Under the pieces are notes generated by a model. The model was given only the letters and a program-made list of their open reading frames with translations. It was not told the origin of the DNA and did not search any database. From assembly GCF_988242995.1 (NCBI RefSeq), contig NZ_OZ547043.1: a DNA stretch of 64,000 nucleotides; one strand, given 5' to 3'. The position numbers and the translations under genes are program-made. Positions 19,255 to 19,332 of this stretch are shown in pieces; within the stretch, counting starts at the first letter, position 1, and the number at the start of each line of letters is the position of its first letter.

Positions 19255-19332
19255 TTGTGCGCCTGAAAAGACGCGTTTAGCGTCGCATCAGGCATTATGG
19301 CGCAGTTGCCGGATGCGTCATCACATCCGGCA
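19255..19332. repeat. REP/BIME palindromic elements
   Basis: gcctgaaaagacgcgtttagcgtcgcatcaggc and gccggatgcgtcatcacatccggc between torD and cbpM. Confidence 0.6.

Follow-up and report, generated by a model that had tools for sequence, protein, structure and literature searches.

REP elements in 3' untranslated regions of an Escherichia coli chromosomal window and a probable BIME-2 remnant between torD and cbpM

What is the palindromic DNA that fills most of the gap between torD and cbpM, does it belong to the same family as the GC-rich palindromes at three other intergenic sites nearby, and does the distribution of these elements tell us anything about the origin of the DNA in which they are missing? 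These questions arise in a window of 64,000 nucleotides, i.e. the whole stretch of contig NZ_OZ547043.1 (RefSeq assembly GCF_988242995.1) that was analysed here and to which all positions refer. Its gene order (hyaB-appCBXA-cspHG-torSTRCAD-cbpMA-yccE-agp-wrbA-rut-putAP-efeUOB-phoH-serX-ghrA-csg-opgCGH-yceK-mdtG) identifies it as a piece of E. coli chromosome, and its identity is about 98.5% to strain ECA64 and 97-98% to K-12. A first-pass annotation, made from the letters alone, had placed REP/BIME palindromes after appX, between torD and cbpM, after efeB and after opgH, and had related their absence from the flanks of yccE and from the phoH-serX interval to a foreign origin of these AT-rich patches.

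The REPs or palindromic units of E. coli, a subject associated with Stern (1984) and with Gilson, Bachellier and Hofnung, reportedly fall into the classes Y, Z1 and Z2. REP and BIME elements have been described since 1984, and their copy-number polymorphism between strains as well as their roles in 3' untranslated regions are either established or under active study. BIME-2 elements consist of alternating Z2 and Y units, which are joined by a short S linker and arranged in tandem arrays.

The window was scanned in three ways. A vectorised Sellers edit distance was calculated against the E. coli consensus sequences for Y (GTAGGacgGATAAGgCGttCACGcCGCATCcGGCA) and Z2 (GTAGGcatGATAAGaCGcgcCAgCGtCGCATCaGGCA) given by Nunvar 2010 (PMC2817692), with 100 dinucleotide-preserving shuffles of the window serving as the null; in these shuffled windows the best match lay at 9-12 edits for Y and at 10-12 for Z2. 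Because the RefSeq annotation of K-12 carries no REP features, we built our own training set for an nhmmer profile, which comprises 25 REPs from three unrelated 50-kb stretches of K-12 (150 kb outside the window region) and was likewise calibrated on 100 shuffles; that this much unrelated DNA yielded 25 of them also documents the dispersed nature of these elements. Finally, Rfam covariance models were run at a permissive threshold. Frequencies of alleles and loci were counted across 5,426 complete E. coli genomes. The features found at the four sites are as follows.

6441-6477, plus strand: solitary, degenerate Z2-like REP with the head GTAA and a symmetrised stem (6445-6476)
19257-19294, plus strand: Z2-type REP, 8 nt past the torD stop codon, with GTGC for GTAG and GAAAAG for GATAAG
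19295-19306, no strand: tail-to-tail linker TTATGGCGCAGT of the BIME-2 'S' type, 12 nt
19307-19332, no strand: perfect, apparently chimeric hairpin TGCCGGATG-CGTCATCA-CATCCGGCA, 8 nt from the cbpM stop codon
40964-40993, minus strand: single-copy, Z1-like palindrome TGCCCGATGCG...TTATCGGGCA, 10 nt past the efeB stop codon
41022-41056, plus strand: canonical Y REP with GTAG head and AA/GC bulge; 2 edits to Y, nhmmer E = 6.6e-9
60423-60452, minus strand: Z1 REP of a BIME-1 (an iREP on the plus strand, ending in CCTAC), 9 nt past the opgH stop codon
60453-60487, no strand: long BIME-1 linker (L motif), 35 nt, with the IHF core AATCAACACGTTG at 60463-60475 on the minus strand
60488-60522, plus strand: Y REP of the same BIME-1 with the variants G26A and C31T; 3 edits to Y, nhmmer E = 2.1e-8

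GC-rich palindromes are thus present at all four sites, as a set far beyond chance, and the first-pass annotation had located them correctly to within a few bases. In the strict sense, however, the term REP applies to five of the seven hairpins: scanned formally, five palindromic units are real REPs, but 19307-19332 and 40964-40993 fail. The common label 'REP/BIME', while right in kind, was also too uniform for a set that comprises a solitary unit after appX, a BIME-2 remnant between torD and cbpM, a Y REP together with a single-copy palindrome after efeB and a BIME-1 after opgH. No further REPs were found in the window by consensus, profile or repeat scan; a weak profile match within efeO (38910-38926) was at chance level when compared to the shuffles and was rejected.

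Our overall reading, to which we assign a probability of about 0.88, is that the five units and their neighbours represent the E. coli REP family (Y, Z1 and Z2), partly organized as BIMEs and located in 3' untranslated regions, with the torD-cbpM element being an eroded BIME-2 stump that has a 3'-end role by family resemblance and is predicted to be immobile. With E. coli REPs in general they share the nature of GC-rich imperfect palindromes of 30-38 nt, which are extragenic, occur at the 3' ends of genes and exist in multiple copies (Ton-Hoang 2012, PMC3333891). The good copies (41022, 60423 and 60488) also share the GTAG head, which is intact at 41022, 60488 and, on the minus strand, 60452, and the AA/GC bulge, which appears as such in the fold of 41022-41056 and as AA/AC in that of 60488-60522. 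By contrast, the Z2 unit in the torD-cbpM gap has a GTGC head (19257) and a widened bulge, whereas the appX unit has GTAA (6441) and a symmetrised stem in which the bulge is replaced by G.U pairs. Both hairpins that fail the scan have neither a GTAG nor a CTAC head, and the bulge is missing from the perfect stem of 19307-19332. At each of the four sites the first hairpin begins 7-12 nt past a stop codon. Three of the sites are gaps between tandem genes (appX-appA, efeB-phoH and opgH-yceK) and one, torD-cbpM, is convergent; altogether, REPs occupy four of the 38 gaps in the window and none of the ten divergent ones. When used as megablast queries, the degenerate torD-cbpM and appX copies found matches at their own loci only, and a query containing the BIME-1 found 16 places in the median genome and at least 40 at the maximum.

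Does the absence of REPs elsewhere carry information as well? As the first-pass annotation had it, the yccE flanks and the phoH-serX interval contain no REP that is detectable by either consensus or profile scan. That this absence itself signals recently acquired foreign DNA in both patches would go along with their AT-richness (GC of 0.34-0.42 around yccE and of 0.37-0.43 at 42.5-43.5 kb), with the content of the phoH-serX interval differing between strains and with 12 kb of the CP4-6 prophage in L008 being likewise free of REPs. Native DNA of this extent, however, would lack REPs by chance with a probability of about 0.4-0.6. According to published rates, only about 1% of REPs are found in divergent gaps, and roughly 30% of convergent but roughly 6% of tandem gaps bear one (bioRxiv 10.64898/2026.03.23.713779); for the gaps in the patches, i.e. 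one divergent, two tandem and one convergent, the chance of finding no REP in native DNA as computed from these rates is about 0.62. Within the window itself, REPs are present in 4 of the 16 gaps that are eligible and have at least 60 nt, and the hypergeometric chance that all three eligible patch gaps miss is 0.39. Moreover, AT-rich gaps of the core (csgD-csgB with a GC of 0.34, cspH-cspG and putA-putP) are also REP-free, and native core gaps gain or lose REPs between strains, as seen with appA-etk, ymdF-rutG and putP-efeU, all of which have REPs in K-12 but none in the window. REP absence is therefore compatible with a foreign origin but has no evidential weight, and we regard it as unlikely that it marks recent acquisition here; for as few intergenic gaps as these it is unusable as evidence of this kind.

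On other, REP-independent grounds the phoH-serX interval does look accessory. K-12 has pgaABCD, dgcT, IS3 and ycdU at this place (about 11 kb), whereas the window (42341-44571) has a DUF2726 gene (42903-43589) and an AT-rich spacer. Direct repeats of 79 nt (43596-43674 and 44488-44565; 96-98% identical) and of 30 nt (44381-44410 and 44561-44590) bracket about 0.9 kb that adjoins the tRNA-Ser gene serX (44572-44659, minus strand) and includes an Rfam STnc490 match (43685-43808); in K-12, the serX-proximal repeat is present as three tandem copies of ~181 nt. From their arrangement, these repeats look like an att-type duplication at an integration hot spot. An Rfam Ysr251 match (42142-42335, minus strand) is antisense to the 3' end of phoH.

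The gap between the convergent genes torD (stop codon at 19246-19248) and cbpM (stop codon at 19341-19343, minus strand) has 92 bp, most of which are taken up by 19255-19332. Its first hairpin is a REP by each of several measures: 19257-19294 is 7 edits away from the Z2 consensus, compared to at least 10 in each of 100 shuffles, nhmmer detects 19261-19294 with E = 3.1e-6, and the unit aligns with the first Z2 unit of BIME-2 arrays at this locus in other strains. The linker that follows has the same length as, and a sequence near-identical to, the linkers in the arrays of three of these strains (L005-L007), and its 12 nt also match the linker length of the BIME-2s that flank rayT in K-12. The second hairpin is different in that the REP profile finds only an insignificant match (19307-19317, E = 0.94). 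Compared to a BIME-2, the Z2 unit, the 12-nt S linker and the start of the inverted Y are all kept, but the Y partner appears to have been cut down to its first 11 nt by a 59-bp deletion, such that there is no complete Z2-Y pair. Judged by this anatomy, the element in the window is a BIME-2 remnant and not a complete BIME-2. BIME-2 elements are bound and cleaved by DNA gyrase, according to Espeli and Boccard 1997 as cited in PMC2817692. A promoter-like site within the torD-cbpM hairpin was at chance level (one found versus 0.7 expected) and was rejected.

The origin of the second hairpin becomes apparent from a comparison with other alleles. In K-12 the gap has 151 bp and contains three units: first a Z2, whose head is likewise GTGC, then the inverted Y unit TGCCGGATGCGGCGTGAACGTCTTATCCGGCCCAC and finally GTAGACCGGTTAAGATGCGTCATCGCATCCGGCA, the third unit. 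Taking exactly 59 bp out of this sequence and changing one base gives the gap of the window, and the position of the break is ambiguous inside a 6-bp direct repeat, GATGCG. On this alignment, 19307-19332 is the left arm of the inverted Y REP fused to the right arm of the third REP, i.e. what seems to be a deletion scar and not a REP of its own. The three other strains mentioned above have regular arrays at this position, in which Z2, a 12-nt linker, Y and a linker of roughly 17 nt alternate to give arrays of 5 or 7 units that repeat about every 101 bp. The BIME-2 locus in the torD-cbpM gap is thus polymorphic, the number of REPs ranging from about 1.5 to 7 between strains, and since the 59 bp of K-12 align with the long arrays, the short allele is the derived one. 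In all alleles the first unit begins 8 nt past the torD stop codon, and 6-8 nt separate the last unit from that of cbpM; because these array edges are constant in every allele, the change has been internal to the array. The allele with the deletion junction is found in 1,944 of the 5,426 genomes (36%), which makes this scar common to about a third of E. coli genomes, and the remaining alleles in a spread sample are K-12-like and longer.

How were the 59 bp lost? Variation of BIME copy number between strains is a known property of the family (PMC3333891), and the most likely event here would be replication slippage between the two GATGCG repeats across the large inverted repeat. Excision of part of the BIME by the REP-associated transposase (TnpA-REP/RAYT) is a rival mechanism with a biochemical basis, as this enzyme cuts and recombines BIMEs in vitro and is a proposed driver of copy-number change (PMC3333891); in addition, the third unit in K-12 retains an intact GTAG. 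Yet TnpA-REP cuts at CT dinucleotides in iREPs and linkers (PMC3333891) and the junction has no CT, whereas a breakpoint within direct repeats on either side of a hairpin is the classic signature of slipped mispairing, which leaves excision improbable.

A different reading of the same hairpin would do without any deletion and take 19307-19332 as an independent short REP unit of a class of its own. Its REP-like arms (TGCCGGATG and CATCCGGCA) and its BIME-like spacing of 12 nt from the Z2 unit would be in line with this, but such a unit would hardly be expected to reproduce exactly the K-12 gap minus 59 bp with a breakpoint in GATGCG, and it has no head, no bulge and an E value of 0.94; we consider this reading very improbable and retain that of a chimera left by a deletion. 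Finally, it is barely credible that the two hairpins are a dedicated bidirectional intrinsic terminator with a REP likeness by chance, because, even though they lie between convergent genes, 19246-19343 folds stably into two hairpins on each strand (z = -5.2 and -6.4) and 78 REPs between convergent genes lie inside sequence-predicted bidirectional terminators (bioRxiv 10.64898/2026.03.23.713779), no intrinsic terminator is called in this gap, neither hairpin is followed by a T-run (a U-tract in the RNA) on either strand, the Z2 match is beyond all shuffles and homologous BIME-2 arrays occupy the same place in other strains.

What could a BIME-2 remnant do in this position? REPs have been described as partly Rho-dependent terminators and as stabilisers of upstream mRNA, and in convergent gene pairs with a REP both genes are more highly expressed, albeit in a strongly context-dependent manner (bioRxiv 10.64898/2026.03.23.713779). 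By analogy with the family, the two stable hairpins would block 3'-to-5' exonucleases at the 3' ends of torCAD or cbpAM transcripts, and the same hairpins would serve as partial, factor-assisted terminators. Since each hairpin starts at most 15 nt from a stop codon, terminating ribosomes may also stall there and the translation of torD and cbpM may be damped as a result; REPs located less than 16 nt from a stop codon lower translation via ribosome stalling, according to Liang et al. 2015 as referred to in PMC12306157.

As mobile elements, the torD-cbpM units are predicted to be inert. TnpA-REP tolerates no mutation of GTAG and requires the bulge (PMC3333891; PMC8266576), and the two units here have a GTGC head or no head at all and a bulge that is either widened or absent. 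Because the GTAG head and the AA/GC bulge needed by TnpA-REP are missing, these units are probably immobile fossils. GTAG and the bulge are both retained in the Y units at 41022 and 60488. The gene map of the window includes no rayT gene.

One may go a step further and suppose that slippage turns bulged REPs into perfect headless hairpins, which are immune to TnpA-REP and are retained 6-8 nt past stop codons not by neutral decay but to tune 3'-end stability or translation termination of cbpAM and torCAD. We regard this conjecture as quite unlikely. If it were true, there would be a general route for the domestication of REPs into fixed regulators in 3' untranslated regions, of which 'symmetrised' hairpins like 19307-19332 or that after appX would be the mark, and the short allele would owe its frequency (36% of genomes) to selection or recurrent origin.

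Among the other three sites, the opgH-yceK element is, by its layout, a canonical BIME-1 (a type also known as RIP or RIB). It shares with this type the order of a Z1 on the minus strand, an L linker with a predicted IHF site and a Y on the plus strand, the two units being head-to-head, and it is present as a single copy at the locus. The Z1 unit (60423-60452) is detected by nhmmer with E = 1.7e-4 and, with 8 edits to Y, beats all shuffles against both Y and Z2; it is identical in K-12. The linker aligns with the BIME-1 linkers of ubiA-plsB and ymdF-rutG in K-12, and its IHF core is one of only 15 matches in the window; binding of IHF to BIME-1 linkers is known (PMC3333891). Its linker differs from that of K-12 by three substitutions (ACGTG for TTTAT), and its Y unit has the two variant positions. 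The locus bears this element in 5,382 of the 5,426 genomes, and a separate intrinsic terminator, i.e. a hairpin with a T7 run, is located downstream of the BIME-1 at about 60543-60570.

At the efeB-phoH site, the Y REP at 41022 is 92% identical to that at 60488 and is kept at the locus in both K-12 and ECA64. The palindrome that precedes it is more difficult to classify. For 40964-40993 the REP profile gives no match, a Z1+L profile gives E = 0.68, and the 8 edits that separate it from Z1 lie inside the shuffle range of 7-9. Its arms are nevertheless Z1-like, including a compensated pair (CCCGAT...ATCGGG), and it can be aligned colinearly with three BIME-1s, but this likeness is a loose one: the IHF core has been lost, and the efeB element does not qualify as a BIME-1. 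No exact copy of 40964-40993 was found in a set of one representative genome per species. A pattern made from the arms only, and hence circular with respect to these, gave three matches, one of which, suggestively, is a canonical Z1 variant with CCCGAT/ATCGGG arms that adjoins a Y unit in another E. coli. A REP ancestry of 40964-40993, perhaps as a decayed half of a BIME-1, is plausible but unproven. The allele of the palindrome seen in the window occurs in only 245 of the 5,426 genomes, and the 70 bp upstream of the Y unit at 41022 are non-homologous to K-12 and ECA64, which have a Z2 and a partial Y in this place.

The unit between appX and appA is a solitary REP and not a BIME. The TAA stop codon of appX is separated by 5 nt from the REP head and by 9 nt from the stem. 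Taken by itself, 6441-6477 is a marginal candidate, as its 10 edits to Z2 were matched in 15 of 100 shuffles and its nhmmer E values of 0.005 (plus strand, 6455-6477) and 0.012 (minus strand, 6446-6476) were equalled in score by 2-3 of 100 shuffles. Its orthologues, however, score as REPs both in K-12 (GTAGGCCTGATGCGGCGC...; E = 3.9e-4) and in ECA64 (E = 1.1e-6), and on this ground we accepted the unit as a decayed REP. Its hairpin has a folding energy of -24.8 kcal/mol (z = -3.9). The element lies within the appCBXA operon, and 5,395 of the 5,426 genomes have it at this locus, with one place per genome. With GATGCG in place of GATAAG in its left arm, the unit has lost the AA/GC bulge, and this is the reason why the profile matches both strands. 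In this symmetrisation the unit resembles the chimeric torD-cbpM hairpin.

Two Rfam families also produced matches at these sites. The model for naRNA4 (RF02564, CssrE) aligns over its full length to 19260-19332 on the minus strand with 46.9 bits (E 1.7e-7 in a small search), which is below its gathering score of 59.5; matches at the other sites are also below this score, with 34.7 bits after opgH, 33.5 after efeB and 21.2 after appX. This model is the Z2-Y (BIME-2) unit of REP325, and a sub-threshold match fits a truncated BIME-2 unit. The model for ES036 (RF02751, CssrF) matches 60445-60487 on the minus strand, i.e. the L linker together with the edge of Z1, with 40.9 bits, which is above its gathering score. 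Both models have been built on pieces of BIMEs, and matches to them mark repeats and should not be taken for genes of small RNAs.

All of this represents the known REP/BIME family and its known polymorphism, with nothing that is biologically new. Our additions are modest and consist of the exact anatomy and the frequency of the short torD-cbpM allele, and the significance of the analysis goes little beyond a correct annotation that sorts the true REPs among the hairpins that had been flagged.

Several other gaps in the window differ from their counterparts in K-12. At the appA/cspH junction (7813-7825), the gfcABCDE-etp-etk capsule operon, IS1D and the appA-etk Y REP of K-12 (about 9 kb; L002 5917-14962) are absent, and appA in the window abuts and slightly overlaps cspH. 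The ymdF-rutG gap of K-12 (L002 32256-32511) contains a full BIME-1, consisting of a Z1 (32354-32383), an L linker and a Y (32419-32453), which is flanked by a diverged direct duplication of ~23 nt of a terminator hairpin, CACCGCCGGT(T/A)ACCC..GGTT. In the window (25049-25138) as well as in ECA64, the same gap is an 'empty site' with a single copy of this hairpin. By its appearance, the difference could go back to an insertion that duplicated a long target or, alternatively, to a deletion that ran from one repeat to the other.

The putP-efeU gap occurs in three different forms. In the window (37442-37660) it has 219 bp with a hairpin and T-run of its own (GCAGAGGGCAATCAGTGATTGCCCTCTGCGTTTTTT), in K-12 it has 542 bp, i.e. 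roughly 320 extra, with GC-rich palindromes and a degenerate Y REP (L011 5116-5146), and in ECA64 it carries an insertion of ~2.5 kb with a hypothetical gene of 1,344 bp. The adjacent efeU gene is intact in the window and a pseudogene in K-12.
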